A stretch of DNA of 64,000 nucleotides. It comes from Patescibacteria group bacterium UBA7396. GTDB taxonomy: Bacteria; Patescibacteriota; Gracilibacteria; BD1-5; UBA6164. Position numbers and translations under genes: made by a program. Every line of letters starts with the position of its first letter. Position 1 is the stretch's first letter. This document shows positions 36,401 through 61,916 of the stretch, piece after piece. The notes beneath the pieces were generated by a model. It had not been told where the DNA came from and made no database searches. It was given only the letters and a program-made list of their open reading frames with translations. The stretch spans positions 8,369 to 72,368 of the forward strand of contig DKNE01000024.1 of NCBI GenBank assembly GCA_002470645.1. The letters are read 5' to 3'.

Positions 36401-37334
36401 CAAATTTTCTCGTGAGTGAGAAAAGAAAAAAGAATCAAATCAAATAGGACTTTTTGATCATATCGAAAACTCAAATGCACTTGTTTTAGAAACAGTTTCA
36501 GAATTCAGTTTTGAAGAATTAATTAAATGAGAAAAACTGGTAATTTGATTTCCAATTTCTGGTCATCCACTCGATGGACTTTCTCGTTATATAGAAAAAA
36601 GAAGTCAAAATGCAAAAATTATGAAAATGAGTTTTGAAGAAATTGAAAAACTTCCAGAAAAACAAAAATCAAGAACCACCATTATTCAAGCGGTTGGATA
36701 TGTGAAAGATGTCAGAAAAATGATGACAAAATCAGGAGGAAATATGGTATTTTTATATTGCGAAAGTTTTGAATATGATTTTGAAGTCACTATTTTCCCA
36801 AAAGATTATGAAGCATTTAAAGATAAAATGGAGGCAGATAAAATTATTATCGTTTCTGGATGACTCAACATCAATGCTGAATATAAAAGAAAAGCTATCT
36901 TAGCACGTGATATAAAATCACTTGCTCTTACACAAGTCAGAGAACAAGCGCAATCATTATGACTTTTTGATAATAAAAAATATAATTCATTTACCAAAAA
37001 TGATGTTTTAAAACAAGCTCAAACTTCTCAAGAAATATCTCCTTCAAACAATGAATCTCAAGAAGAAAGTCAAGAGAGTGATTTTGTAGAAATTCAGGAA
37101 AATCCTCCTCCAACTTGCGCTGTTTTTGAGGAAAAAATGGACAAATATATTATTCAAATTCCTCCAACAACTCAAAAAGAAAATTTATTAAAATTGAAAG
37201 AATTTATGCTTAGTTTACCAAGTTGAGATATAAAAATATTTTTGAGTTTAAAATGACAAGAAATAGATACAAAACTTTCACTTGCAGGACTTGATGAAAT
37301 TTACTCATTTGAGAAAAAATATTTTTTAAAGTAA
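33453..37334 (+). CDS. dnaE: DNA polymerase III alpha subunit (1293 aa)
   Basis: The PHP domain starts [17 protein letters not shown]. Also present are [26 protein letters not shown], the PDIDTDF motif ([16 protein letters not shown]), and [10 protein letters not shown]. Track ORF 36621..36863 is in the same frame. The stop is TAA at 37332-37334. Confidence 0.9.
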
Positions 37335-37339
37335 AAAAT

Positions 37340-38389
37340 ATGAAATATAATATAGCAAAAGAATATTATGAATTATTTTCAATATTTTCACCAGATTTTC
37401 CAGAGTTTTTGCATGAGTTTTTAGAGGCAAAAAGTTTGAAAAGATTAGCAGATATTGGACAAAATTGTGGGACTGAATACACAAAATTTTTCAATTACAA
37501 ATTTGAAGCAAATCGTTTGTGACATAGTATTTGAGTTGCTTTGATTATTTGGAATTTTACTCATGATAAAAAACAAACTCTTGCTGGACTTTTTCACGAT
37601 ATTTCAAATAGTATTTTTTCTCATGCCTGAGATTATTTACTTTGAGATGTTCAAACTCAAGAAGCAGCTGAATTTTATATCACAGACATTCTTCAAAATG
37701 ATGAAAAAATTATGGAACTTTTAGAAAAATATCATATATCAATTGAGGAAGTGAATGATTATACCAAATATCCAATTGCAGATAATAAGAGTCCAAAACT
37801 TTCTTCAGATAGGCTTGAATATACTTTGGATGGAGGAATATATTTGTGATACAAAACTTTTGAAGAAGTGAAGAGAATGTATGATGATCTAGTTATTTTA
37901 AAAAATGAAAATGGAGAACAAGAGCTTGGTTTTCAAACGAAAAGCATTGCATTAGAATTTGCAAAATTATCTCTTTTAAATGATTCGAGTTGTTTTTCGA
38001 GTTTTGAAAGTCATATATCAATGTCATTTCTTTCAGAGATTTTAAGAGTTTCTATTCAAGAAAAAATAGTTTCGTTTTCGCAGTTATATAATATATGAGA
38101 AGCTGATTTTATTCAAAAAATATATACTTCAAAAAATAAAAAAGTGATACAAATGTGGGAATTTTTTATAAAAATGGAAAAATATGAATTATTTAAAAAG
38201 GAACCTCAGACTTCAAAATATTATGTGTATTCAAAGACAAAAAAGAGATATATTAATCCTTTGGTGCTAACGATTGATGGAGCGAAAAGAGTTTCTCAAA
38301 TTGATAGTGATTTTAAGAGTAAAGTTGGGGAACATCTTGGAGCACAGGAAAAGTGGATTGAGGTGGATTATGAGTATAAATGAAATTAA
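37340..38389 (+). CDS. HD-domain phosphohydrolase, COG1078/SAMHD1-like architecture (349 aa)
   Basis: The sequence contains RLGHSIGV...LAGLFHDISNSIFSHAGD and a later SSDRLEYTLDGG, matching the H..HD..D and DRLDY pattern. Track ORFs 37340, 37868 and 38144 are all in one frame joined by TGA. The gene starts 5 nt after dnaE. Confidence 0.6.
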
Positions 38390-38449: not shown

Positions 38450-38477
38450 TTGATTATTCTATATTTATATATAAAAT
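38450..38477 (+). promoter_or_regulatory. Promoter candidate for the helicase cassette (TTGATT-16 nt-TAAAAT)
   Basis: TTGATT lies at 38450-38455 and TAAAAT at 38472-38477, in the 125-bp gap after the HD gene. Confidence 0.4.
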
Positions 38478-38514
38478 AATTAAGTAAGAGTAATTTACTT
38501 TCTTTTTTCAACTT

Positions 38515-39684
38515 ATGGCAAATTTTAAGTTTAATTCAATATCTTATGATAAGATAAAAGAATCTATACAATGAAAATATATGATAGAAGCTATAGATAG
38601 TCCTATAGATTGCAATTTATTAGTTTACTGATTACCTTGAGCATGAAAAAGTACTATTGCTGCTCATAGACTTGATAAATTTAATAGACAAAATAAAAAG
38701 GTTATTTATTTAACTTATTGAAAATTATTATCAGAATTTTTAAAACAATGAATAGATGATATTAGCGCTAAAGTAAAATTTAATTCTTTTTGGAAATGGT
38801 TTTATGAAATTAGAAAGAAACTAAATCTTAATTATATAAAAATAGAAAACATAAAATCAGAAGATGTAAAAGAAACTTTTTCTAAGTATTTAGAAAAATA
38901 TGGAAAATTTGATGTAATTATAATAGATGAATGACAAGATATTTTACAATATATTTATGAACATATTTGAATTTTGTCAAATCATATTTCTATTTTTGCA
39001 GATGATGCCCAACAAATAATTGTTAGAACTTGAGAAAATAAAATGACGGAAATTATAAAATGATATTTGAATACAGAAACATATCAATTAACATTAAATA
39101 GAAGAAATCCAAAAAGTTTATATGAATTTGCATTACAGTTGAATCCAAAAAATGTTGAAAAGTGAGATATAAAGTTAATGGAAAATAAACCAGAGCCAGT
39201 AATTTTTTATGATTGTTGTGATAAACAAACTGAATTAGTTCAAATATTAAAAATTATTGATGATAATAAATCTAAAAATATTGCTATATTATTTTCTCAA
39301 ATAGAACAAATTAGTTTATTTGAAACAGATTTAAAAAGTGAAAATTTTTATGATTATACTCTTTATAATAGTGAAAATAATTTTAATATAAATAATTTTA
39401 AAAGCCCTTTAATTACTACTTTCAAATCTGTGAAATGATTAGAAGTTGATATTGTTATAATTCCTAATTTATACCCAAGTATAGAATATAAATATTTAGA
39501 TAATAATCAGCTGTTTGTAGCTTTTACTAGAGCAAAAGAAAAACTTATTATTACTCATCATAGTTGATGAAGTCAGATAGAAAAAATTTTAAGTAAATTT
39601 GATTCTAATACTTATTCATCATATAAAATATGAAATGATTCTTGAAATAAGAAAGAGATAAGTATAGAAGATATAGAGTTTTAA
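38515..39684 (+). CDS. Compact SF1 (UvrD/RecD-like) P-loop helicase/ATPase (389 aa)
   Basis: Walker A is VYGLPGAGKST (Gly as TGA) and Walker B is VIIIDEGQD. The C-terminal UvrD_C-like motifs are TFKSVKGLEVDIVII and LFVAFTRAKEKLIIT. Track ORF 39178..39438 is in the same frame. Confidence 0.7.
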
Positions 39685-39713
39685 TAATATTTTTATTTTT
39701 TTAATCTAAAATT

Positions 39714-41339
39714 ATGGCTAAAAAATGAGAAACAACTAAAAAATCAAAAACAGTAAGTAATAGTAAAAAGTATATTCAAATTTCTCAATGAAATCTGTTA
39801 TATTTTTTGACAAAATGATTTATTTATCCAGTTAATATAAATGAAAATAAAAACTGGTTAGAAGAGAATGATTTATTTTATTTATTTAAAAATTATATTC
39901 CATTTGTTTCTAAAAAGATAATATGTAATTGAGTAAACATAGATAATATTATATTTTTAGAAGTAGATGAATTAAAAGATATTATTGACTTAAAAAATGA
40001 TATTTGGTTATATAATTGAATAATACCATTTAGTAAAGTTTCATCTATATATATTGAAAATAAAGCAGTATATGAATCTATAATTACTAGTAATTATAAT
40101 AATATTTTTATACCTAAAAATAAGATTAAGATACAAAAAATAAACTTAGAAAATAAAGAAATATCTAATACTCAATTAGAAGATAAAGAAAATGATAATA
40201 TTGAAAGACTTAAAGATATTTATAATAATAAAAATAAACAATTATGATGAAATCAAATGATAAAGTTTATTGATGAAGATATCTGGAAGCTTTTTAATAC
40301 TAAGAATACAAATAAATCTCAAGAGATGTTATTTTTTTTAAACAATTATTTAGAAAAAAAAGATAAAGATATAAATGATAAAATTTTATTATTTATAAAT
40401 GACTTAATAAACAAAAGAATAAAATTTGAAGGGAAAGAAAATTTAAAAAATTTATGAAATAAAATAAAAACTATTGTTAAAGAATTGAATATTCCTAGTG
40501 ATGATCAAAAAATATCTGAATTCTTAAAAAATTTAAAGAGTTATATTGATACGACTTCTCCATCTATATCAGATATAATAAATATAGAAAAAGATTGAGA
40601 TAATTATGGAATATTATTGTTTTTAATTTTATATAAATATTGAAATGAAAAATTAGAAAATTTTGATAAATATTGACTATCGTTGATTAAAGATAAAAAA
40701 ATAAAAATATTACTTTCTTATTTATATTGAGAATATAATTGATATAATTCTTTATATTCAGAATTAAAACTAAATGATGATATAACAAACAAATTAATTC
40801 ATGAATGAAACAAAATTGATTATAAAGAACTTGTTGATATTGTAAATGATGAAAATAAAATAAAAATAAAAAAACTGAAAACTATAAGAGATAGTAATAT
40901 TGTTTGGGCTTATGAAGAATTTTTTATTGATAAAAATAATATTGATTGATATACAGATTTGGAAAATAAATTAAATGATGAAATAGAAGCTAAAGATGAA
41001 CTACAAACTAAACTAAATAATGAAACTAAGGCCAAAGATGAACTACAAACTAAACTAGATGAAGAAAAAGAGAGTAGAAAAACTTTAGAAAAAGAACTAC
41101 AGAATATAAAAAATCAACTATCTACTAAAGAAAATGAGTTAAATAAAGAAAAACAAAAGAATGAAGATTTGAAAAAAAACATTGATCAAAAAGAAGAGAA
41201 AATAAAAGAATTTGAAACTAATAAAGAAGAATTATTGCAATATTTTCAAGAGTGAATAAATCAATTTAAATCTAACAAAACTCAAAACAATGAATCTAAC
41301 AAATGAGCAGATTGAAATTATACAGGCGGACTTTTCTAA
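39714..41339 (+). CDS. Hypothetical 541-aa protein: unknown N-terminal globular domain, helical middle, C-terminal coiled coil
   Basis: ATG at 39714. Track ORFs 40257..40457 and 40959..41255 are in the same frame. The C-terminal heptad-like stretch is AKDELQTKLNNETKAKDELQTKLDEEKESRKTLEKELQNIKNQL.... The stop is TAA at 41337-41339. No family recognised. Confidence 0.6.
40992..41057 (+). repeat. Exact 24-nt direct repeat (AAAGATGAACTACAAACTAAACTA) at 40992-41015 and 41034-41057, period 42 nt
   Basis: Direct reading. It encodes KDELQTKL twice within the coiled coil. Confidence 0.85.
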
Positions 41340-42759
41340 TATTCTTCTCATAAATGCTTTTGCTTGAACTTGAAAAACGACAACATTAGTGGAATTTTGT
41401 AAATCAAGACCAAATGATAATATACTTTATCTTTGCTATAATAGATGATTAAAAGAAGAAGCTGTTGAAAAATTTAAAAATCTAAAAAATGTAAAAGTTT
41501 CAACGATTCATTCAATAGCTTATAAAGAAATATGACATAATTATTCTCAAAGACTTTGAAATTTGAGGCCGTATGATTTAGCTAAATACTTTCATTGAGA
41601 TATGAAGTATTATTATGGATATTATACTTTGCTCATTTTTAAAGATTTTCTAAATTCATGAGATACATTTGAAACATATTTAAAAAATTTAGATAATGAA
41701 ATAGATAATATTTTAAAATGATTTAATGGAAAGTATAATTCAAATATGTTAATTAAGGCTTTTTCAAACATTTGGAAAGATTTATTAAATTGAGAAAAAT
41801 TAAAAATAGAACATGATGTTTATTTGAAATTGTACCAGTTATCAAAGCCTAATTTAAAACATTTTGATTATATTTTAGTTGATGAGGCACAAGATGTAAA
41901 TTGATGCATGCTGGATATAATTTTAAAGCAAAAAACAAAAAAAGTTTTTATTTGAGATTCTTTTCAGCAAATCTATCAGTGGAGATGAAGTAAAAATACT
42001 TTTAAAATATTAGAAAATGAAACTGATAAAGTAGAATTATATTTAACTTGAAGCTTTAGGTGTGCTAAAAATATTACTGATATTGCAAATCAATATTTAA
42101 AAGTTTTATGATCAAAATCAGAAATACAATGATTAAATAAAAAAAGAACAAACTTAGATAATCAAACAATTATTTGAAGAACAAATGCTGGAATTATGAA
42201 ATATATAATTAAAAATAAATGAAATGTATTTTATGTATGAGGATTTGAAAGTTATAATTTTAGTTTGTTGCTAGACATTAATTATTTGTATAATAATGAT
42301 TATACAAAAATAACTAACACTTTTGTAAAAATATTTTGAAGTTTTTGAGAGTTAAAAATGTATTCTGAGGAGTGAAAGGATCAAGAAATAAAAGCAATGA
42401 TTAAACTTTTTGAAGAAATTATTTGAAAAACAATTAATATTAAAGAATTAAGATGAGTTGATAATATAGAGGAATTGGTTTTTTTATTGAAAAAAGAGTT
42501 AACAACTGATTATTTATATTCCACTTATGCTGTTTCTTCAGCACATAAGTCAAAATGATTAGAGTGGGAAAATGTAGTTTTATTAGATGATTTTGAAGAT
42601 ATAAATGAAACTTTAAAAGAAATTGATAAATTATCATGAAACCAAAAGGAAGAAAAATTAGAGAAACTATTAGAAGAAGTAAATATTTTGTATGTAGCTT
42701 GCACTAGAGCAAAACAAAAAATACAGATAAATGATAGGTATTTAATTGCAGAAAAATAA
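41290..42759 (+). CDS. UvrD/Rep/PcrA-family SF1 helicase, compact form (489 aa)
   Basis: The sequence contains [63 protein letters not shown] and [13 protein letters not shown]. The ATG at 41290 overlaps the preceding gene by 50 nt. The stop is TAA at 42757-42759. Confidence 0.8.
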
Positions 42760-42797
42760 ACATACTTCTCCCTATTTCCAAAAAACATTTGCAATAA

Positions 42798-42833
42798 AAA
42801 ATAAATACTATATAATCTATAGTGTTTATTTTT
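42798..42833 (+). terminator. Rho-independent terminator closing the helicase cassette
   Basis: AATAAATACTATA-taatc-TATAGTGTTTATT forms a 13-bp stem with one G-U pair, followed by T5. Confidence 0.65.
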
Positions 42834-42850
42834 TAACTGAATAAAAGCGT

Positions 42851-45963: not shown

Positions 45964-48900
45964 ATGCTAAATAATTATTTTAACATTTTTTTTATGCAAA
46001 ATTATACAAAAATTCAAAAATTTCTCTCTTTTTTGCTCATATTTTCAATCCTTTTTTCTTTCAGTGTAAACATAACATTTTTTAGTTTTTTAGGAACTAT
46101 TTTTGCTCAGGATGCAAAAAACTATAATGTAGTTTCTATTTTTGTACAAGAAGAAATTTATTCTTGAGTGAGATCTAGTGTTGATAGATATGCAAGAAAT
46201 ATCCAATGAGTTTTAGAAAATACAAAAACAATGATTATCCCTATTTCTGGAGATACTCACCCATTTAATATTGCATCATTAAATGAAAAACTTTATTTTG
46301 AATGATATAATTGACTCGGTGGATTAACTGGCAATTCAAAATTAGTTGGAAGTATTTTTATTTGAGATATTGCTCTTCCTGTTGTTGAAAATAGAGGGAG
46401 TTATGAAAAAACAGTATTCCCTTATGTTGATTTTGATCAAAAGCTTTATATTTTTGATGAAACAAAAAAAATCTTTCAATTAAATAAAAATGTTATTTCC
46501 ACTCCAAAAGCAGAAATTTGGCATGGATTTATTTCTCCAAATACAGGAAATAGAACACAAGATATACAAGAAATTAATGAGTATTTTTCAAAAAATAATG
46601 ATTTTTATACAGGAGGATGATTATTTCAAAATACTCAGGGAATTATGAATGGGAAGCTTGATGAAGACTTATTATCAACATATGAACCACATGTTTTTTA
46701 TTATGATCAAATTAGAGAAACAAAAGCAGTAAAATATGTAGATTATAAAGCATATGAAGCTACTCTTCTTTATAAAGAAGATCTTTCATACAATAGATTT
46801 TCTGCTGAATTAGCTGAAAAATTAAAGGCGAACTATTTTTGAGCACAATCTGATTATATTGGAGATGTTGGAAGTATTTTTTGAAGTGGAATTGATTTAA
46901 GTACCATGTTATTATGACCAACTACACAAAATATACCTGATGTACAAACAAGACATATTATTCAAAATACTACTAAAAATTTTCTTCAAATTTTCAATGG
47001 AAGTGCGCTTGGTGATATGAGAAAAAATGTACATAATGCTGGAAGATATAATTCATGATCAAGTAATGTTTCGGTTGATTTAATACCAACGTTGTTAACA
47101 AGTCTTGATATGCTTTCTCAAACATCAGTAAAAAATGTAAATAATGATGTGGAAAAAATTATTGATGAAGTAGTAAAAAAAGGTCTTTCTAGAAATATTG
47201 CTATTCCAAGTGAATTTCAAGTAGGTTCATGAACATATATTAATTTTTTGTATTGAATGCAATGATGAAAAATTACCTCGGCTTGAGAGTGTAGTTTTTA
47301 TAGAGGTTCTACGTATAGTGGGGGGAATTTAGTAGGAGCAAATAGAGCTTTTAATATTAATAATGTCCAATGAGATATTGATATGTGTCAAAGAGCAGAT
47401 ACAAGATGATATTGGTGAGGAAATTCTCCGTTGAATCTTGATACCACAAATTCAGCGAACTGAGAAATTTGGAAATTAAAATTTAGTGATCCTACTAATG
47501 CTATAGTTCCTCTTTTTGATATTTTATGATGATTAAAAACCACTGATACAACAAAAAACCCAGATCCAAGAATGTGTTTTGATAACAATCTTATTTTAAC
47601 AAAAGTAGAGTGAAGTTCTTGAGAATGATGAAATTTAGAAACAAGTTATAGTGTTCCAGTCAATGGAAATCCTGCTATTAATTGGAGTTGTAGTTCTACA
47701 AATATTAAGTTTCCTTATACGTATTCTTTTGATGAGACATATAAAAATTTTCCAACACTCCCCGTAGAATCATGTGATGAGCATTATTTAAAATTAGATG
47801 GAAATACCATAAAAGCCCATACTGTTAATTGTTGAGAGTGATGATGATCATGAGGATGAGTTTCTACTCCAATTCGTGAATGAATGGAAAATGTTCATGA
47901 GAGAATGTGAAGTGGCTCTACTCAGACAATTTACAATTTTCATAAAATTGCTTCTTGGATAGAACATAAAGCACCAACATCACAAGAATTATATAAACAA
48001 ACTCAATATATGATTTCTCCAAATCTTCCAATAGACAAGGATAGATATATTGATTTTATTGCGGCAGATAATACTTATGCAAAGATTGAATATCCGTATC
48101 TTTTTAGAGTATCATCTCCTGAAAGCTTTAATTTTTCTGCTACAAAAACAGCATTAAAACAATATCTTGATCAGAAATCTCAAGAAATTAATGCTCTTAT
48201 TCAAGCAAAAGATCCATCAAAACTTACTGGAGAGGATTTAGCGATATATCAATTACTTACTACAGGAACTTATCCACAAGCAAATATTGATTTATATGCT
48301 TTACTTTTAGCAAAACCAGATAAGGAGATAGAAATTTTATGAGATAAAAAAAGTCTTAGTTATATTGATACTCTTACATTTTCTATATTATGGAATAATT
48401 TAACAAGTGTTTCAGCAAAATATGCATTTATTTTCGAAAATTATCTTTCAGATCAATTTTGATGAAATGATTATAATTTTTATCTTCCAAAAAATAAAAA
48501 ACAATATGAAATAGCATATTTATGAGCTCCTGGAGATCCTAGAAATATGTACATTAAGCTTGATCCAGAAGATAAGTGAGAAAATCCTTACACATCTATT
48601 TTACAAGCAAATCAAAATCTTGATAGTTATTTATTGAGTATAAAAGATAATAATGATACAAGTGCTAATTTTAAATGTGCACCTCCAGAATGAGTTCCAA
48701 TTTGGGAATGGATTCCAGCAGTAATGTGTCGGTTAAAAGATATGTTACCACCAAAAATTAGTATTAATGAGTGAAATTGTTGACTTCCAGCAATGTCTTT
48801 TTCAGATGATTGAGAAATAGAAGTGTGTACTTCTTGTCAATCTACTCAAACAGGTTCTCAAATATCATGAGAAGATTTGAATAAAAATGGGATTCCAGAT

Positions 48901-51900
48901 ATCTTAGAAAAAGATGTCAAAAATGCGGTACTATCATTAAATACAAATTCTTCAAAATATCCATATAATAAAACATGATTTATTGAGGCATCTCTTTTAA
49001 ACCAGTCTGGAGCACGTATTACTCATGATAGTTACTCAAATGTAGCTTTTGAGCTTATAAAAGTAGAAACACCTCTTGATGAACAAAAAGAATTTTCTTC
49101 ATCTAACACATATACTTTATTTGATAAAGAAAATAATACTCTTAATTCAGACCAAGCGAAAAAACAAGCAGAAGGATACATAAATTTTAGTGATATTCAA
49201 GTAAGATTGAATAGAGGAGTTTTTAAATATAATTTTTCTACAAAGTCAAAAGATGCTAATATTACTTTGAGGGTTATTCTCGAATTAAAAGCATATAATT
49301 GAGATGTTATTGAACGTAAGACACAAGATATTATATTGCAAATCAGAGGAGATTTATTGTATGCATCCAGTTATAAATTATCTCAATTTGATGGCGAATT
49401 ATCACTAGATTCTTTAAGTCAATGAATATCTGTTTCAGAGTACCAAAATATTTTTCTTATTGAAGAAAAGGATTTTGTAGATTTGAGATCAAATCTTTCA
49501 TCTCTTGATAATCTTTCTCTTGCAAAACAAAAACTTTTTTTAAGTCTTGAACACCAAGATAAAAAATGAAATAGAATTCCTATAACCTATCCATTATCGG
49601 TAACATTTTATAATCAACAAGCAGAAGTTGTTTTTAGTCAAACTTTGGCATCATTATCTTCCCCAAAATCATTATGAGCGTTTAAGGATTCTTGAATTTA
49701 TTCTCTTGAAATTAAAGACGCAACGGGTTTTATTTTAAAGAAAACACTCACTCTTCTTCCAGATATTGCTACAAAAATAGAACCAAAACTTTCTACAAAT
49801 TTGATGGAAAAATGAGGTGCTATCACGACTCATGTTTTTAGTATTTATGATAAATATGACAATCCAACACAAGCGGAACTTTATACTGTAGAAGCAGAAA
49901 TTTCTTGAAATAGTGTAGTTTTTGAAGATGGGACTAAAAAGCAAATATTTCAAGTGTATGACGGATATAGAGCATTTAGATTAAAAACTACTCCGGTAGC
50001 AGGAAATGCTAATATTACTTTTTCGTTAAAATACGCAGAACAAACTCTTGATAAAAAAACCGTACCAATTTCTGTTGTGGATAAAATTGATTTTGATATT
50101 ATATTACCTTCAGAGATAAAAGTTTGAAATAATGAGTATAAATATTCTCTTCAAGTTAAAAATCAATCAGAGAAAAGCAATTTTAATTCAAGAGCATATT
50201 TAGTGAGTAATGCGCAATATATTAAATCAGTTGATGGATATATTGATATTAAAAATTCTGTTTGAAGCTGAAGTTTTCAAACAAAAACAAAAGCTTGAGA
50301 AAAAATAAAACTTGAATTTAAAATAGAGTGAGTGAAAGATTCTATTTATAAAGAAGTAAATATTCTCCCAGAAGTATGATTGAAAATCGGGCTTACTCTT
50401 TCAAAATCAAAAATGGAGGCAAGTCCAACATCAACAGCTATTTTGTATGCGGAAATAAAAGATAGATATAATAACCTTGTATGGACAGATAATCAAACTC
50501 AGTTAGACTTAGAAATATTAGATAGATATTCAAATATTATTCGTGCGAATATATCTTCAAAACAAGTACAAAAGTGAAAAGCAAACTTTATTTTGAGTGC
50601 AACAGATATTCCTGGAAGTGCTTATTTTAAAGTAGGGTCTACTCCAAGTTTATCAGAAAATTCTTTTACACTTACTGGACAAACTCCTTTTACTAAAGAA
50701 ACATTAGATTCTTTAGCTGGCATGAGAGAAGACTGAATTTTAACAGAAATATGAAAAAAGTTTTTTACTGATTATGATAGTAAAAATTATAGATTTAAAT
50801 ATTATGATATTTCAATACTACAATCAAGCGAGGATTTTAAAGCACAAAATCCGCTTGTTCAAAATAGACTTCTCTCACTTTTTGAATCAAATAATACTAT
50901 TACAGTAAATGGAGTATGAGAAAACATATGAAAAATAGAAACATTTTATTTTTGGAATAAACAAAAAATAGAAGGCAATAAGTATAATTCTATTTATACA
51001 ACTCTTTTGTGAAGTAATTATTGAGATCTTACTGTTTCAGACAACTTGGCAAACTCTATTATTTTTGATAAAAATAATAAAGCTCTTTGAGTAACTACTC
51101 TTTTAAGTGATACTACAAAACATCAGGAAATTCTTAATATTAATCCTAATGGAAGTTTGGAGCTTCATTCTACCTTGAGTGATGTAGCATATGATATCAG
51201 TACATATTTTAATATTACTGAAAAAGGATGATTGGAAGCGGTTATGTATAATAACACTTTTGATACTCTTGTTTCAAGAGTGTATTATAATCTCAATTCT
51301 CCAAAAATTATTGATAGATGTACTACTTCAAATATTTCAGATTGTTTTGATAAACAAAAAACTACTGTTTTACTCCAATCTTTACAATCTGGATATACTT
51401 CGAAAGTTGATGAAAGAACTGGATTAAAATTTGCAAATTCTCAAAATCAAATTCTTTTTGAAATATCTCCAAGTGGAAATATAAAAAAATCTATTGATGT
51501 TACATTAGAATTAGCTAAAAATTATACAACAGGACTTGTCTTGAATATTAAACAAGGAAATAAAATAATTTGAATGTTTGCTATATCTTTTCCAAAAAGT
51601 AATGTAAAAATTATTAGAGATATGAGTCTTTTTGAGGAGGTAAAAGATTCTCAAGAAACAGGATGAATGATTATTTATTTAGAGGCAAGAGATTATTTTT
51701 ATAAAGCAAAATATCTCTGATCTTCTACAAAAGAGGATATTTGATATGTGATTGCATATAATGATCCATTTTCATCAAATACTCCATGAGTAAATCAATT
51801 TGGAACTTTTTTTAATTTTTGATATGAAAACTTTCATTCAAAAGATTGACTTGGGTGGAAAGAAGACAATAAAATACTTCTCTCATTTGCAGCTGGAAAA

Positions 51901-54900
51901 ACTATTTGACAGTCAACAAAAGATTTTATGACTTTTGGGCTTATTAATATTTGAGATCCTGTTGCGAGTTTAAAGCCTATTGCTAAAAAATTACCTTGAA
52001 CACAAAAAACAAGAAAATATGATTCAACGATTTGATATTTGATATCAAAGGATGAGGATAATTTAGAGTATGATGTTTTTGATTATAATAATGATGGGAA
52101 TGATGATGTCATTATTCTTAAAAGAGGATGATATGTTCAACTTCTTGAAGGAACTGATGTTTTTTGAGATTTTCTTGATAGAGGAAATGTAGTATATATT
52201 GCTGATATTTCACCAAAATCTCCAATTATTGCGTGAGATTTTTCAGGAGATGGTTTTTCTGATATAGTATTATTAAATAAAGATAGAAAAATTATATTTC
52301 TATCAAATCAAATTAAAGATTTTAGAAGAATAGATACCAATATTACTTTTGATGGAAATATCAGCCAAATTATATGATTTGATATGGATTTAGATGGAAG
52401 AATGGATCTTGTAATTCTGGATGATATGTGAGATTTATATATCTTTTATGGAACACAACAAGAATGAATTTTCCAAAAAAAATTGGTTGATTCTTGATTA
52501 TGAATAGTGCTGAGTAAAAAATCTAGGAAAGATAGAGGAGCTCTTTATTATGATTGATTATATCAAATTCCTCGTGATAAAACTCAAGAAAATTTACTTG
52601 ATAGTGAAGCTTTATTGAAACAACTAGAACAAAATAAAGCTACCCTTTCTTGATCTCAAAATACTTCTCAAAATGGTATAAATGAATCATTGATTGATAA
52701 GCTCATTTTTACACAAATGAATTATACTCCAGTTTCTGCACGTTCACAAACTTGAGGTATTGTTTCTCAAATGCCAGCATCTATTATGACGCCATGAATG
52801 ATTTCTGGAATACAAAACCAACAAAATTCTATCAATGATATTATAACAACTTTTTCTTGAACTGCGACACAAAAATCACCAGATCTATCAAATGGAGTAG
52901 CATGAGTAGAAAGATGAATACAAGATGCAATTACATGAGTAGAAGATATATTAAATAGTTATACAGATGACCCAAATACACAAGTTACTACTCAAGGGAC
53001 ACAATTATCCAATGATATAACTACTTTTTTAAAAAGTGAATATGCAGAATTTCAATGATTTGAAGTTTCTAAAACATATATTGATATAAATGATGATCCT
53101 CTGAGAGGGGGAGATAATGTTGAATTGGTTATAAAAATTAAAAATAATACAACTCAACCATTAAAAGATTTTGCTTATGCTGAAAAAATTTACAATATAT
53201 TTTCTCTTTCTTCAAGCTCAAAATTTTCTCTTCAAATTTGAGAAAAAAATATTGCACATGAAGATGTATATCTCCAATCTTCACCAAGTAGTCAGTTTAC
53301 ATTTTTGATAGATAGTTATTATGAAAATGGGCAAAAAAAATATATAAATCTTCTTGCGTGAGAAGAAATGACTTTACGTATTACTTTGACTACTAATGCC
53401 TTTGAATATGGACATATTGATGTATGATTTTTTGATAATCAAACAGAACATTGAGATATTATTTTTAAAGATAAAGATGAAAATTGTTGACAGGAAGTAG
53501 GATTGTATAAGTCAATTGCTGTCAGAGAATATGAAAGAACTATTCATGCTCCTTCATGTGAAAATACACTCCCTGATGAAGTAGATGAAAATGCAGTTGA
53601 TGAAGATGGGAATGGTATTCCTGATTATATAGATAAACTGTTAAGTGGGGAAAATAGTCATATGGATTATGCAAATGACCAACTTTGAGAGTTTAATAAA
53701 GATACAGATTGAGATGGTATTCCTGATAGAGATGATACTTCGCCTGGATATGATTCTAGCCAAGATGATTTCATGAATTCTTTAAATATGGCAGATATCA
53801 ATATAGATAAAATTATGCAATGAATAGATACTATATTGGCATGATTATCTTGTGGATTTTGATGATGATGATGTATATCTTCTCCTCTTAATTGGGCTCC
53901 ATTAGCTCCTTGAAACGATCCTACTCTTTTTGGTATGCCATTGTTAGATGGATTAAATATAGGTGAATGACTTCCGATTTTCTCTGCTTTAACATGACAA
54001 TGGTATGGGCCATATTGTTGACCATCAGTTTGGCCAGCAAGTCCACTCAATACAGTATGATGTTGAGATCTTTGAGCATGAGGTCGGCTTTGAATTAATA
54101 ACCCAGCCAATTTTATTAGAGTCTTTGTTACGCCAACACTTACTTGAGCAGTATGAATTGCGGTATGTTTTTGATGACCAGCATCTATTGCATGAAGAAC
54201 AAACCCTGAATGACTTCACCCATTTGTCCCATGATGAAATTGTGTAGTTGCGGCTACTCCAATGTTATGATGTAAAAATGATGGATCAGATGGAGAAATT
54301 TATAATCTTTGAAATCCTTGAGCAAGCATAATAAATGGAAACTGTTCTTGAAATAATAATACTTCGTCAACACCATATCTATGAGAAGTATGATGAGACT
54401 ATGTAAGCTATAAAAATACAGGAAGAAAATCACCAAAATTAGATGTAGATTTAAAAGAAATTCTTTCGACAGTTGCAACTTGACCATCTCAAAGATGGAG
54501 CTTGCCAAATGAACCACTCCTTAATATCTGAAATTCATCTAACCCAGATCTTTCAGTAGATATAGATTTTTGAGCTATTTCCGAATGAAATTTTCAAGAT
54601 GTTATTGATGTGAGTATGACAAGAATATCTCCATTCCCTGACTTTATTATGGAATGGGTTACTAGACAAATCGAGGAAATTGCAAATAAATTAACAGATT
54701 TTCCTACTCTTTATATTATTCTTCCAGATTTTAAATGAGTGTTTGATAATGATTGGGGATGATTTTTAGATAAACTCCAATCTTCATATAGTGCCTGAGA
54801 GCAAACTCAACAACAAAAACAAGCGTCTATTCAATCTCAAATAGATGCTAATAAATCTCAACTAGGGAAAATCAATTGTGATAACAATACTACAGAATGT

Positions 54901-57900
54901 TTATCATATGAACTTGAAATATCAAAATTGGAGGCTCAAAAAAATCTTTGAGCAAATCAAACTGTATGAGGGATTAAATCGGTATATGAATTTTTATCGA
55001 GTATGCCTATGATTAAAATAGAACCTCAAAAAGTAAACTTTAATATTCCTTGGCCATGAGATAAAGCAAGTATTGATAAAGCTATTGCTGATTTTGAAGC
55101 AACAAAACTTCAATGGCAGCAAGAATTTGAAAGAGCAAAATCCCAATGGAATATAAATAATTATGATTGTGTTGCGACTTCTTCTTCACAAGAATGTAAA
55201 AATATGCTCAATGTTCAAAGTCTTATTAATTCTATAGATAAAAATATTGAAATACTTAGAGGCTATAAAAATATTCCTGAGGATGTTTATAGAATGCTCA
55301 AAATAAAAGACATTCGGATAGAGCAAATCTTATGTAACATTGAAACTATTTCAAAAATTACAGGTTGACGGATTTGAGATAATGGAAAAAGATTTAAAGC
55401 TTGGGTAGAATTATATGTTCTTATTAAGGCTATATTAAAATCATGGCAATTATTGGTAGATGTATTTATAGATTATGATGCAGAATGTCATGAGTGTAAA
55501 AATGAAAGATATGATCTTTTATACTTTGTATGGAAGCTCATTAGTATGGTTATGCCAAAAATCCCAGTAATTCAATTTCCAAAATGGCCAGATATATATC
55601 TTGATTTACATAATATTAGAGTGTCTTTGGTAGTAGGACTTCCAGAGTTTGAGTTTAATCTGAGACCTATTGTTTTGCCAACTTTACCAGAATTATATCT
55701 TCCTAATAGTCCAAATGTAGGATTAAATTTACCAAATCTTCCATTGTTGCCAGAGTTTATTCTTCCGACTCTCCCTGATTTACCAACTCTGCCAACAATA
55801 GAGCTCCCTAATTTACCACCACCACCAAAATTACCAAAACTCCTTTCTGCAATAGAAGCGTTTTTAAATATTTTGAAATTGATTACAAAAGTGATGTGTA
55901 TTTTAAAAACGTCTCCTTTTGTACCTGAATGGAGAGCCTGAGACCAAATAGCATTTATTACAGAAAGAAGTGGGTATTTATGAATTGACTTTCTTGATAT
56001 GTCTCTTCCTCAATTTTCTTTCCCTTTTGTAGATGCGATTAAAGTATCAACATTTGTAAATTTAGAATTCGAAGTAGAATTTTTAGTAGAAATGGCAAGA
56101 CAAACAGCTCTTCCAATAAATGTTTTTGGAAACAATATTGCAAATATGCTGAATATTTGATTAGGAGATCTTGATTTTAGAGCAGCTACTCCAGAAGATA
56201 TTAATGTTGATGTAGAGAGAGATGGAAATATAGAAACAAGTTTTAAAGAGGATAAAAAAACAATTTCTTTGTTTGATTTAGCATCAATATTTTCAGAAAA
56301 TTTGATTCATTTATATGCTGGTATAGAAAAAAATTCAAAAATTGAACTTTCTAACACAGAATTTAAAAATGAAATATTACAACAACTTCCATACATTACC
56401 AATGAAAAAATAGTTTGAGTATGGAATGATGCACTTTGATATTCATTTACGAAAGAAGATGCAATTATAAAGGAATTGATATTAAATAATGAGGAAAAAT
56501 ATAGAGAAGTCGAATCTATTTTACAAGAAGAAAGAGAAAAAAATAATCAAATACTTTATACTATCCAAAAAGAATGAATTCAAGATACTCCAAAAAATAT
56601 TCTTGTGTATTCTAATGAAAAACAAAGTATATCAGATTATAATACAAGATTGAATCCATATAATAAAAAGGCATTAGATTCTCTTAATAATCTTTATATA
56701 GAAGATCAACAAGTGGGTGAAATTAGGACAGAATCAAAACAAATCTTAGCACAAGTACAGTCTTGATTAAATAATTTTTCTCAAAAAATGCAAGAATCTA
56801 AAGAGGCTTTTGAAAAAGTAGAAATAAGATGACAAAATCAATTATTAGCAACTAATACATCACCAACAGCGACTCAAAATATAGCACCCAATGAAAAAAA
56901 TACTTCTCAAACAACACCTCAAAGTTCACAATCATGTCAAATGAACTCAAATGGATATAGTTATATTTATAAATGAATTTATATTGTAGAACAATTTTTA
57001 AATAAAAAAATTAGTTACTATTTATTTGATTATTTAGATGAACTTTCTTGAAAAGAAATAATTAAAGAAAGAGATTTTGATAATGATTGAGACCAAGACA
57101 TTATTTATATGGTATGAGATGAAATTTACTTAAAACAAAATTATATCAGTAAAAAACAAGTAAAAAATATTTACTCAGGTTCTCCTATTATTCTTCCTTC
57201 TACAAAAAATGATTATATAAAATCAACCTTTATTTCTGGAGTAAATAATTTTGAAGAATCTGTGAGTGATAGTAATTTTATAAATATATCATTTGATGCA
57301 AAACAAAATCAAAGTAATTATAGGGTAGAATTTTTCCCAATAGTTGATAAATTTGACGATATGATAGCACCACAAGATACATACATTCCAAAAAATATTA
57401 AAAAATATATTATAGATGCTTTTACTGATATAGATAGACAGACACTGGACATGGAGACTAATGCTCAAAATACGGTAAACATCAGAAAAAATCTTGCATA
57501 TATTGATGCTATTTCAAATACTGCTGGAATACATTTATTTACGAAACAGTTAATAAATTTAGCAGATGATTTGAGTACAAATACTCAAGTAACACTTAAT
57601 GCAGGTTCAAAAATTTATTCATGAAAAGATTCTGTAAGGATTAGATATTATCTCTATAAAGAAAGGAATAATGAGTTAAAAATGAAAGAGATAAAATTAA
57701 ATGCTTTATCAAATATTGCTTTTAAAGATGATATTATAGTAGTTTGACTAGTCGGGGAAGCATATGTTGAGTGAAAAACATTTATTAATCTAACATGAAA
57801 TCAAATAGCGACGTATCTTAAAAAACCACTGTTACCATGAAGTATTTTCACATACAAAGATATGGAAATACCACTGAGAAATTCTTATGTAACAATAAAA

Positions 57901-59217
57901 TATTATGATGGAAGTGATGCATTATTAAATTTTCAAGATATAACATATTATCAATTATATGATTTATGAGCTACAAGACTTAAATACTCAATAAGAACAT
58001 CTCTCAAAAATGATTTCTATTATGCGAAAATAAGAAGTTTTAAAAAACAATTATTTTCAACTTACTCAAATCAAGTTCTTCTGTCACCGCAAAATGAATC
58101 TGATACAACAGCACCAGAAATTTCTAATATTTCAACACTTCGTCTTCCTGTTTATGTACAAAAAACATTTGATTTATCGGAAGCTATATTTGAAAATAGT
58201 TGAAATAATAATATTAAAGATATTTATATAGATTTTGATTTAGGGGTTGATAGTAATGCTGATTGAAACAAGACAAATGATAGAGATTTTGTTTTAGGAA
58301 ATATAAAAAATAATCTAAGAATTACAAAAGAATGAGCAAGAATTTTATTACAAGCAGGACCATTTACAGATCTTATAAATAAACAAATCAGATTGTATGT
58401 AATTGATGCTAATAATAATGTATGAGTGAAAAATATTAATTTTGTTGTTTATTCACCAATTCCAAGAATTGATTCTATAGAAAATAATAATATTTCTTGA
58501 ATATTGGATGAAGTACTTATGAAAGTTCCAGTAAGTTTTTATAGATTAAGGAATAATGAGCTGACTCGTCTTCAAGATTATAATAAAAATATGCAAACTC
58601 ATACTATAGAATGATGAAAATTTTTATTTAATACGTGAGTAAATACATCAACAGGAGCTACGGTTTCATATTCATGAGAGACATTATTTACATTAAATGA
58701 AGAGACAGGGAAAATTTATATTTCAGATATTTCTAAACTGAGAAATAAATTGAATATTAACGTTTATTCATCAAATAATAAAAATAATGAGTACCTATAC
58801 CCAAATATTGTTATTACTAAAGAAAATATTCCAATTTTTCACCAATATTTAGTGACTCCAAATACAGGAAAAGTACAATCAGTGACAAATTTTATTGAAG
58901 TGATAGAATGACAATATAAAAAACAACAATGAGTGTATTATATGCATCAAGCTTCAAATAATTTTTGATTTGTAAGTTTACCACTTTGATTAAAAAATAA
59001 CGCATGAGATTTATATGTATATTCACTTATTGATGAAAAAAAGGTACCAATTTTTACTATTTTTAAAGATGGAAGAATAGATGTAGTATGAGATTTATAT
59101 TATATTGAATATTCGACATACTGAGATTATATAGTTTATAATTTAAAAAGGAGATGATTAGAAACAACTATTTGAAGAGTACTTATTATTCCAGAGGAAA
59201 ATTATATAGTAAAATAA
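45964..59217 (+). CDS. Giant secreted multidomain surface protein (4417 codons from ATG 45964; 4407 from ATG 45994)
   Basis: Every 60-nt line of the listing starts in this frame. I read all codons from 45964 to 59217 and found no TAA/TAG until TAA at 59215-59217, with one to several TGA per line. The N-terminus has a signal/TM segment (FLSFLLIFSILFSFSVNITFFSFLGTIFAQD). Recognisable modules are Ig-like (about 49740-50700), FG-GAP/VCBS-like repeats (about 52080-52470) and TSP3-like Ca-binding DxDxDGxxD motifs (53590-53760). Further modules are a Gly/Cys-rich core (53821-54600) and an LP-rich segment (55630-55850). Confidence 0.85.
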
Positions 59218-61517: not shown

Positions 61518-61916
61518 TTAAAATTTATCATCTTCTTCAATATGTTCATCATCATGATCAATTTCATCAATTGATTCAAAATCAGATTTTTTATTTAAGA
61601 AGATAAGGCTTGAAATTACGATTTCTGTTTTATATGATTTTGTTCCGTCTTCTTTTTCAACCACTCTTGTTCTGAGTCTTCATTCTACATATACGAGTTT
61701 TCCTTTTGTTAAGAACTTTTCAGCTCTTTCAGCTAAATTCCCCCATGCAACACAATTATGAAACTCACTTTCTGATTTATTTTCTCATTCAGAAGTTTTA
61801 TAATATCTGTTAGTAGCAAGAGAAAAGAGAGCTACTTTTTTACTATTATCAGTATTTTTCACTAAAGGGTCTCTGGTAACATTTCCGATTAGTATAACTT
61901 TGTTTACCGTTCTCAT
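61518..61916 (-). CDS. ssb: Single-stranded DNA-binding protein (132 aa)
   Basis: The sequence is MRTVNKVILIGNVTRDPLVK...[32 protein letters not shown].... The acidic tail ends in DDKF. Two Gly are encoded by TGA. Confidence 0.9.

Follow-up and report, generated by a model that had tools for sequence, protein, structure and literature searches.

A mobile cassette of two SF1 helicases and a protein with a predicted ADP-ribosyltransferase domain in a UGA-recoded gracilibacterium

Introduction

Immune systems that ADP-ribosylate DNA or RNA have come to light in recent years, represented by DarTG and CmdTAC, in which the transferase is a small free toxin restrained by a separate antitoxin. DarT ADP-ribosylates single-stranded DNA, blocks phage replication and acts in anti-phage defence (PMC11825919), and CmdT ADP-ribosylates mRNA (PMC11618068). 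Pairs of an enzyme that writes the mark and one that erases it include DarT-DarG and DraT-DraG (PMC9503650). Here, we describe a three-gene cassette (genes A, B and C) from Patescibacteria group bacterium UBA7396 that resembles these systems in part. In contrast to them, the predicted ADP-ribosyltransferase (ART) domain of the cassette lies within a large protein that may also contain an eraser and that is always paired with an ATP-driven helicase. The cassette was found in a 64,000-nucleotide stretch of contig DKNE01000024.1 (assembly GCA_002470645.1), and the whole of this stretch is called the window. A preliminary description, made from the letters of the window, had proposed the cassette as a candidate defence or accessory system.

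Proteins of the gene B type are already known to the extent that Pfam holds two models for them, PF22546 (2CompART) and PF22545 (2CompARG; ARG, ADP-ribosyl glycohydrolase), which indicates that such proteins had been seen by curators. What is new in the window version is a second helicase in place of the AlkB-like and third genes of its closest relatives, a tail on gene A that resembles the tip of single-stranded DNA-binding protein (SSB), an eraser region that is barely recognizable and confinement to organisms that read UGA as glycine.

Results

Open reading frame (ORF) calling with genetic code table 25 placed gene A at positions 38515-39684 (389 aa), gene B at 39714-41339 (541 aa) and gene C at 41290-42759 (489 aa), all on the forward strand and without internal stops, and reproduced the three-gene layout of the preliminary description exactly. 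The 50-nt overlap of B and C (41290-41339), in which C occupies the +1 frame relative to B, was likewise borne out, and comparison of gene coordinates showed that an overlap of 47-59 nt is kept in all loci that have C.

The product of gene B is predicted to consist, in order, of an ART domain, a helical and ARG-like region, a beta region, a coiled coil and a conserved tail. The helical middle and the coiled coil with an internal repeat had been recognized before, but the N-terminal domain, previously left unassigned, can be assigned. Residues 20-139 (39771-40130) match PF22546 with an E value of 2.2e-6 and a score of 28.3 bits (cut-off, 27) and cover positions 3-119 of the 120 in the profile. 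All seven diverse B homologues tested matched the same family, the best at 4.9e-14, and one of the seven has a SAP DNA-binding domain at its N-terminus. The earlier statement that the cassette lacks a nuclease or toxin domain holds for nucleases, none of which was detected with Pfam or PADLOC, but not for toxins, as B carries the ART domain. Gene B matched no housekeeping family, and its match is to an ART domain of conflict systems.

Structural comparison agreed with the family assignment. An AlphaFold (AF2) model of the homologue P0007, built on the correct table-25 translation, had a predicted local distance difference test (pLDDT) score of 82 and showed an alpha/beta domain followed by a long helical region and then a small beta domain; when the whole model was submitted to Foldseek, DarT structures ranked first. 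The ART domain modeled alone had a pLDDT of 85, and its first 11 matches in the PDB were Tpt1, eight DarT or DarTG entries from four organisms and the uncharacterized protein CC0527. The best fold match was yeast Tpt1 (7yw4; E 7e-4, template modeling (TM) scores 0.55 and 0.62). DarT and DarTG entries occupied ranks 2-7, 10 and 11 (7omw, E 5e-3, probability 1.0), while Scabin, a DNA-targeting ART toxin, was at rank 14 and LT-IIB appeared lower down. The top named matches belong to the ART superfamily and have nucleic acids as substrates. Nine residues (Y20, N27, G35, I37, P39, D53, E83, S107, and P134) are invariant across the table-25 proteins and their Bacteroidota relatives, two groups that are only 23-26% identical, as expected of a conserved active site, and the invariant glutamate E83 is placed on a core strand of the domain. 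By family and by modeled fold, residues 20-139 of B are thus predicted to be an ADP-ribosyltransferase domain. Searches of PDB sequences with B profiles gave coiled-coil noise only, and a word-index search with the ART profile gave a fragment only.

The middle of B (residues ~170-413; 40221-40952), which comprises the helical region and the small beta region, is collinear with the 2CompARG region of the Bacteroidota proteins. Its motifs LGGxQM and KIKILLSYLYGExNGY align with MGGFAAMK and KKEGLALIFGLNKGY, respectively, and we regard this part of B as a putative glycohydrolase-like region whose homology does not reach significance when it is compared alone. The coiled coil (residues ~414-515; 40953-41258) matched only other coiled-coil proteins and varies greatly in length among homologues. 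It contains a tandem repeat (40963-41071) with the unit NNETKAKDELQTKL, for which Tandem Repeats Finder reported a period of 42 and 2.6 copies. The unit of 13-14 residues (~42 nt) is present twice in the window, three times in L005 and once in L006, so that the length of the coiled coil differs between near-identical cassettes. The protein ends in a C-terminal tail (41259-41339) with the motif NExNxGTxGNxxLxI, whose coding sequence partly overlaps the start of C, and a similar tail (GNNLLQI) is kept in L011, a locus that has only A and B.

Gene A is predicted to encode a minimal UvrD-type superfamily 1 (SF1) helicase/ATPase, as had been proposed. The motifs GLPGAGKST, IIDEGQD, KGLEVDIVII, and FTRAKEKLII are all present, the Pfam matches were UvrD_C, Viral_helicase1 and SLFN-g3 helicase, and the six lineages compared show no variation in Walker A, Walker B or motifs III-VI. 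A search of the PDB found no close solved relative, and scores against NCBIfam equivalogs were 20-24 bits, far under the cut-offs. The protein ends in an acidic tail (39664-39684 in the window) that reads ...[DE]IPF in six lineages (L008-L013, L153) and ...IEDIEF in the clade of the window, and which we take to resemble the C-terminal tip of bacterial SSB. The SSB of Escherichia coli ends in ...DDDIPF, and this tip recruits genome-maintenance proteins. The window has an SSB gene of its own (61518-61916, reverse strand) whose product ends in ...HIEEDDKF, not in the canonical ...DDDIPF; the tip on gene A of the other lineages is more canonical than that of this SSB.

Gene C carries all of the motifs listed in the preliminary description (AFAGTGKTT, LVDEAQD, QQIYQWRG, GSFR, HKSKGLEW, and VACTRAK) and matched Pfam UvrD-helicase and UvrD_C, consistent with the compact UvrD/PcrA-like helicase described there. 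Its best solved relative was the eukaryotic F-box DNA helicase 1 (FBH1; E 9.4e-42), an anti-recombinase helicase, to whose helicase domain it aligns end to end (residues 3-479). A similarly full-length alignment was obtained with phage helicase family PHROG 1967 (E 2.9e-87), and homologues at ~30% identity were found in 316 records of a phage collection, one of them adjacent to genes for conjugative transfer on a genomic island of Salmonella. The homologues that were inspected, from a phage and the genomic island, stand alone without A or B as partners. Unlike FBH1, gene C encodes no F-box and sits behind an ART protein with the overlap given above. Scores against the NCBIfam equivalogs UvrD, Rep, RecB, and HelD were 23-50 bits, for cut-offs of 543-1168. 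We class C, from its sequence, as a compact FBH1-like helicase of the UvrD family in SF1. Gene C of L010 (3015-4898) encodes 627 aa, of which ~130 form a C-terminal extension not seen at the other loci.

The three genes move as one unit between loci. Nucleotide comparison (blastn) of the window with two unrelated contexts showed that the DNA in common extends over 38513-42764 in L003 (90.6% identity) and over 38513-42746 in L005 (94.7% identity). Homology begins two bases upstream of the ATG of A and ends 5 nt after the stop codon of C in L003 and 13 nt before it in L005, and the DNA beyond these breakpoints is unrelated among the window, L003 and L005. Inspection by eye revealed no flanking repeats or att-like sites at the boundaries. 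At 90-95% DNA identity, the cassette occupies at least three contexts: between an HD-domain gene and alsS in the window, between tilS and RhuM in L003 and behind a ParA-like gene in L005. L006 and L007 carry it in the same context as the window, and L001, a contig from a Joint Genome Institute (JGI) metagenome, is the same DNA as the window.

The cassette is rare and was found in recoded genomes. A word-index search recovered five close relatives of gene B, on whose contigs A-B-C is intact and the flanks differ. When 1.84 billion cluster representatives were searched exhaustively with phmmer, only eight B clusters were recovered, all on UGA-recoded contigs and one labeled Candidatus Gracilibacteria, in line with the earlier suggestion that the cassette circulates within table-25 lineages. 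A DNA pattern that allows TGA or GGN recovered 13 of 13 known loci, and a scan of GTDB genomes with it confirmed the known Gracilibacteria metagenome-assembled genome among the matches listed. Diverged copies, with 34-58% identity in B, retain the order A-B-C in further contexts. A, B and C occurred together in seven of the eight loci examined, and the eighth had A and B. The three genes thus co-occur elsewhere and are not a core, syntenic set.

Neighboring genes differed among the diverged loci. In L008, L009, and L153/L154, a Gp49/HigB-like toxin gene (136-138 aa) and an HTH-SocA_Panacea antitoxin gene (228-230 aa; HTH, helix-turn-helix) precede A-B-C (L009, 7731-8817; L008, 310-1390; L153, 8894-9986). 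This pair is 64-87% identical between lineages and more conserved than A or B, and the block in this clade may be a five-gene unit. A-B-C adjoins xseB in L010 and is present in L013; L011 and L012 have only A-B, followed by xseB and xseA; and a photolyase gene is among the neighbors in L009. Across loci, including the operons of the Bacteroidota type, genes for RhuM, integrase, reverse transcriptase and a DUF87 ATPase were also found nearby. The cassette in the window is flanked by no phage or plasmid genes.

Ratios of nonsynonymous to synonymous substitution (dN/dS), calculated from pairs of close copies with measurable divergence, were 0.06-0.14 for A, 0.11-0.16 for C and 0.33-0.39 for B, which indicates that all three genes are functional and under purifying selection. 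B is the fastest evolving of the three. Identity matrices showed that A and B follow one tree with three clades and that C departs from it. For example, L013 and L153 are 83-85% identical to the window in C, but 44-51% in A and 36-44% in B, and A and B of L153 are nearest to those of L009, although the C proteins of L153 and L009 are only 67% identical. The agreement of A with B, the discordance of C and the locus with A and B only argue that the A-B pair is the conserved, co-evolving core and that C is an exchangeable third part that appears to be swapped separately.

The closest relatives of A outside table-25 organisms, and with them of the A-B pair, were found in Bacteroidota. A profile of A reaches SF1 helicases of ~345 aa in standard-code bacteria (1e-38 to 1e-27), and such a helicase is encoded directly upstream of a 587-654-aa ART-ARG protein in Flavobacterium sp. 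N1719 (L147; CP109993.1, 7382-12276) and in three metagenome lineages (Bacteroidota-type loci, L147 and L148-L152). This protein matched both 2CompART (E 1.5e-32) and 2CompARG (E 1.7e-41) and has a coiled coil and a C-terminal Rho_N/SAP-like domain. The operon begins, where contigs reach, with a gene for an AlkB-like 2-oxoglutarate- and Fe(II)-dependent (2OG-Fe(II)) dioxygenase that matches the PADLOC model CARF_2OG at 2e-54, and its last gene encodes a protein of 480-490 aa, which in Flavobacterium has an S-adenosylmethionine (SAM)-methyltransferase motif I (IYDWGCGQG). The operon may combine two writer/eraser pairs with one helicase. It is found near an integrase gene (Flavobacterium) or near reverse-transcriptase, NUDIX and YjiT-like genes, and a metagenome scan with the ART-ARG alignment found two further loci only.

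The window cassette shares several features with this operon. A is 27% identical (E 3e-18) to the Flavobacterium helicase, hhalign relates the B family to the Bacteroidota proteins with a probability of 95% (E 2.4e-8), and the alignment is collinear over the full length (E 8e-9, driven by the ART part). In both, a small SF1 helicase gene stands just upstream of the ART gene, some members have a SAP/Rho_N-type DNA-binding domain, which speaks for an association with DNA, and the genes form a tight operon in a mobile context, the Flavobacterium copy lying beside the integrase gene. However, window B scores nothing on the 2CompARG model; the window and all other table-25 loci lack both the AlkB-like dioxygenase and the 480-490-aa protein; the third gene of the window encodes the FBH1-like helicase, unrelated to the methyltransferase-like protein of Flavobacterium; the Bacteroidota partner helicases lack the SSB-tip-like tail, which is present on A only in the table-25 version; and only organisms with UGA=Gly carry the window version.

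Other systems are more distant. DarT is among the closest solved folds to the ART domain of B, and DarTG shares the logic of a writer plus an eraser. Membership in DarTG was nonetheless rejected: B has no match to the DarT family (DUF4433) in Pfam and no PDB sequence match, and neither a macrodomain (DarG) nor NADAR is encoded by A, B, C or the neighboring genes. The cassette also differs in that the putative eraser in B is fused to the writer, that it has two obligatory helicase partners and that the strand-1 histidine is replaced in B. The RNA 2'-phosphotransferase Tpt1/KptA is the best fold match and a nucleic-acid-directed ART, but B lacks the N-terminal RNA-binding lobe of Tpt1 and any sequence match to it, and Tpt1 is a housekeeping RNA-processing enzyme that has no helicase partners. 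In DraT-DraG and other ART-ARG pairs, an ART is paired with an ADP-ribosyl glycohydrolase (PMC9503650). Each of these pairs consists of two small, separate proteins, has no helicase and targets proteins, whereas the two activities of the cassette, if both are real, are fused and its fold relatives act on nucleic acids. PADLOC models of Gabija GajB, Nhi, AbiO and NERD+UvrD matched C and A at 1e-22 to 1e-9, which marks both as SF1 helicases of a type that defence systems employ. C matched many GajB models (best, 2.8e-22), mostly over stretches of ~100 residues common to all UvrD helicases, and Pfam and PADLOC detected no GajA (OLD/TOPRIM nuclease), NERD domain or nuclease in the cassette. Gabija was rejected, as no GajA-like gene is present in the cassette or its flanks.

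The reading of UGA as Gly, rather than Trp, is supported by the restored Walker A glycines of A and C and by the GGN glycines that homologues carry at TGA columns. In alignment columns dominated by TGA, the remaining homologues most often had glycine as their sense residue in 22 cases and in no case tryptophan, for a GGN background of 0.8% in the same comparison. The heavy use of UGA as Gly and the AT-richness reported earlier were both evident. TGA makes up 85-94% of Gly codons in the cassette compared to 43-50% in the flanking genes (the HD gene, dnaE, alsS and an aldehyde dehydrogenase gene), and the G+C content of A, B and C is 0.208, 0.184, and 0.224, respectively, compared to 0.27-0.32 in the same flanking genes. 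In public protein sets, the cassette genes (P0001-P0012) are mostly table-4 translations with W at each UGA, which lowers Pfam scores; P0001 has no precomputed 2CompART match on record. Annotation with the standard code mistranslates UGA=Gly products and could hide systems of this kind.

Discussion

The variable context of the cassette, the non-housekeeping character of B and the co-occurrence of the three genes agree with the earlier proposal of a candidate defence or accessory system as opposed to core repair genes. We consider the chances about even that the cassette is a mobile conflict- or defence-type system, a divergent variant of a helicase plus ART/ARG system whose core is helicase A and the ART-bearing B. 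Within this reading, we infer that B is catalytically active and targets nucleic acid, what the helicases and the tail do, and that the system acts against phages.

Several observations weigh against this reading. The fold matches of the ART domain are modest (TM 0.53-0.62, E 7e-4 to 5e-3). The position of the classic strand-1 ART His/Arg is occupied by Q or E in the table-25 B proteins and by S or P in Bacteroidota, and this replacement implies a non-canonical active site; in the homologue P0011, E83 itself is replaced by K. Compared alone with the Bacteroidota ART-ARG proteins, the middle region of B gave an hhalign E value of 0.52, Pfam 2CompARG gave no match on window B even at E <= 10, a search in which the HMMER filters drop most matches above 0.1, and Foldseek found no PDB fold match, and no ARH-like structure, for the helical and beta regions. 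Neither B nor the Bacteroidota ART-ARG protein is represented by a model in PADLOC v2, and we found no experiment on a member of the family and no paper that describes 2CompART/2CompARG or a system of an ART with a helicase. The architecture, which the preliminary description matched to no named system, is nevertheless not wholly new, as Pfam has two domain models for the B-type protein. Lastly, several contexts lie beside replication and repair genes (dnaE, xseAB and photolyase, and AlkB in Bacteroidota), which fits a role in repair.

An accessory module for DNA repair or damage tolerance, with no toxin-type immune effector, is unlikely in our judgment, but it stays a serious rival because of the non-canonical active site and the repeated nearness to genes of DNA metabolism. 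In such a module, the helicases would open DNA at lesions or stalled forks, and B would bind NAD+ or ADP-ribose, or would remove or write ADP-ribose marks on DNA in the course of repair, for example to counter toxins that ADP-ribosylate DNA. The neighborhood of dnaE in the window, of xseB and xseA in L010 and L011 and of photolyase in L009, the fixed AlkB-like dioxygenase of the Bacteroidota operon, the closeness of C to an anti-recombinase and the SSB-tip-like tail on A all suit a repair function. Movement of the identical cassette between unrelated loci and the great rarity of B do not, nor do its fast evolution, the toxin-antitoxin, RhuM, integrase, and reverse-transcriptase genes nearby and scores that come nowhere near the cut-offs of the NCBIfam models UvrD, Rep, RecB, and HelD. 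A housekeeping origin, in which UvrD/PcrA/Rep-type helicases act with a structural coiled-coil partner, would account for the SF1/UvrD motifs and the location beside dnaE; we rejected it as extremely improbable, since it is contradicted by the variable context, the eight B clusters among 1.84 billion representatives, NCBIfam scores of 20-50 bits for cut-offs of 540-1170 and the anomalous G+C content and codon usage.

Two further explanations are less likely than the repair role. The mobility of the cassette, its linkage to a classical HigB-like/Panacea toxin-antitoxin pair and the combination of a writer with a putative eraser in a single protein, which recalls DarT-DarG and DraT-DraG (PMC9503650), are compatible with a selfish addiction module of the toxin-antitoxin type, in which an ART toxin is restrained by the glycohydrolase-like region or by the helicases and which would mainly stabilize itself or the surrounding DNA, with no anti-phage role. 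Yet classical toxin-antitoxin modules need no two ATP-dependent helicases with fully conserved motifs, and toxin-antitoxin and defence functions are not exclusive, DarTG being both; we think such a module quite unlikely. More improbable still is descent from the replication/recombination module of a phage or plasmid, of which the cassette would be a remnant, with A and B as accessory replication factors. Helicases of the C type are common in large phages and occur in conjugative elements. The similarity of C to PHROG 1967 and to the 316 phage-collection records, the C homologue that adjoins tra genes in the Salmonella genomic island and the ParA-like gene that precedes the cassette in L005 point in this direction. 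However, B homologues were absent from the phage collection (tblastn) and from a scan of IMG/VR with one short motif pattern, and the Flavobacterium ART-ARG protein had no relatives in the phage and plasmid collections (tblastn) or in a short-pattern scan of IMG/VR; moreover, the cassette in the window is not flanked by phage or plasmid genes, and the inspected C homologues lack A and B.

If the cassette is indeed a conflict or defence system, ADP-ribosylation of nucleic acid exposed by the helicases is its most likely activity, a proposal made by analogy with DarT. Loaded onto foreign or replicating DNA, the ATP-driven helicases would make single strands or ends accessible. The ART domain of B would then use NAD+ to put ADP-ribose on the exposed nucleic acid, as DarT does on single-stranded DNA, and the marking would keep the invader, or else the infected cell, from replicating. 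In place of a separate antitoxin, the glycohydrolase-like region of the same protein could serve in cis as an eraser or brake. The acidic ...IPF tail of A may direct the complex to proteins that bind SSB at forks, or it may dock A to B or C, and B may act as a coiled-coil dimer. The fuller picture, an immune or conflict machine in which a writer and an eraser in one coiled-coil dimer are carried along DNA by SF1 motors and mark the exposed single-stranded nucleic acid of invaders, with a mimic of the SSB tail to target forks, is tentative and, on balance, doubtful.

The arrangement of the cassette suggests a targeted, motor-delivered marking of nucleic acid. If this is true, ADP-ribosylation of nucleic acid is coupled to helicases and operates without a separate antitoxin in ultra-small, UGA-recoded bacteria of the candidate phyla, and the Bacteroidota relatives add a second writer/eraser pair in the form of the methyltransferase-like protein and the AlkB-like dioxygenase. 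Were the mechanism to hold, the cassette would provide a new writer/eraser pair for the ADP-ribosylation of nucleic acids and might also lend itself to tools like the DarT2-based editors (PMC11601458).

Flanking genes and local signals

The Pfam labels of the flanking genes agree with the earlier identification of dnaE and of a thiamine pyrophosphate (TPP)-dependent, alsS-like enzyme as neighbors. The HD phosphohydrolase reported directly upstream (37253-38389) has weak similarity to HD proteins (Pfam HD, E 0.009; PADLOC dGTPase, E 0.006) and does not travel with the cassette. Its candidacy as a component of the system was dropped, as it showed no linkage to the cassette in other contexts. The public call of this gene begins later (349 aa, start ~37340), and with this start the apparent overlap with dnaE disappears.

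The cassette had been credited with a promoter and a terminator of its own. The promoter-like hexamers at 38450-38477 (forward strand) exist, with 9 of 12 matches, but are no better than chance, since the 39 promoter-like sites found compare with 46.9 +/- 6.6 in shuffled sequences, and they lie outside the DNA that moves. A conserved promoter of the cassette was rejected, as the upstream sequence differs without relation from locus to locus and promoter-like sites show no enrichment. At 42795-42835 (forward strand), there is a real AT-rich hairpin of 18 bp followed by a T run (free energy, -15.3 kcal/mol; z = -4.3), which a terminator scan for G+C-rich hairpins did not pass. It lies beyond the blastn homology with L003 and L005 and so outside the mobile unit; it is plausibly a local terminator that does not belong to that unit. 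A good promoter-like site at 42788-42816 (TTGCAA, 16 nt, TATAAT) overlaps the hairpin just 5' of alsS, and the region may serve both as the terminator of the cassette and as the promoter region of alsS.

Two genes downstream of the cassette is a giant ORF (45964-59217, forward strand) of 4417 aa, which has a weak match to FG-GAP repeats and likely encodes a surface protein.

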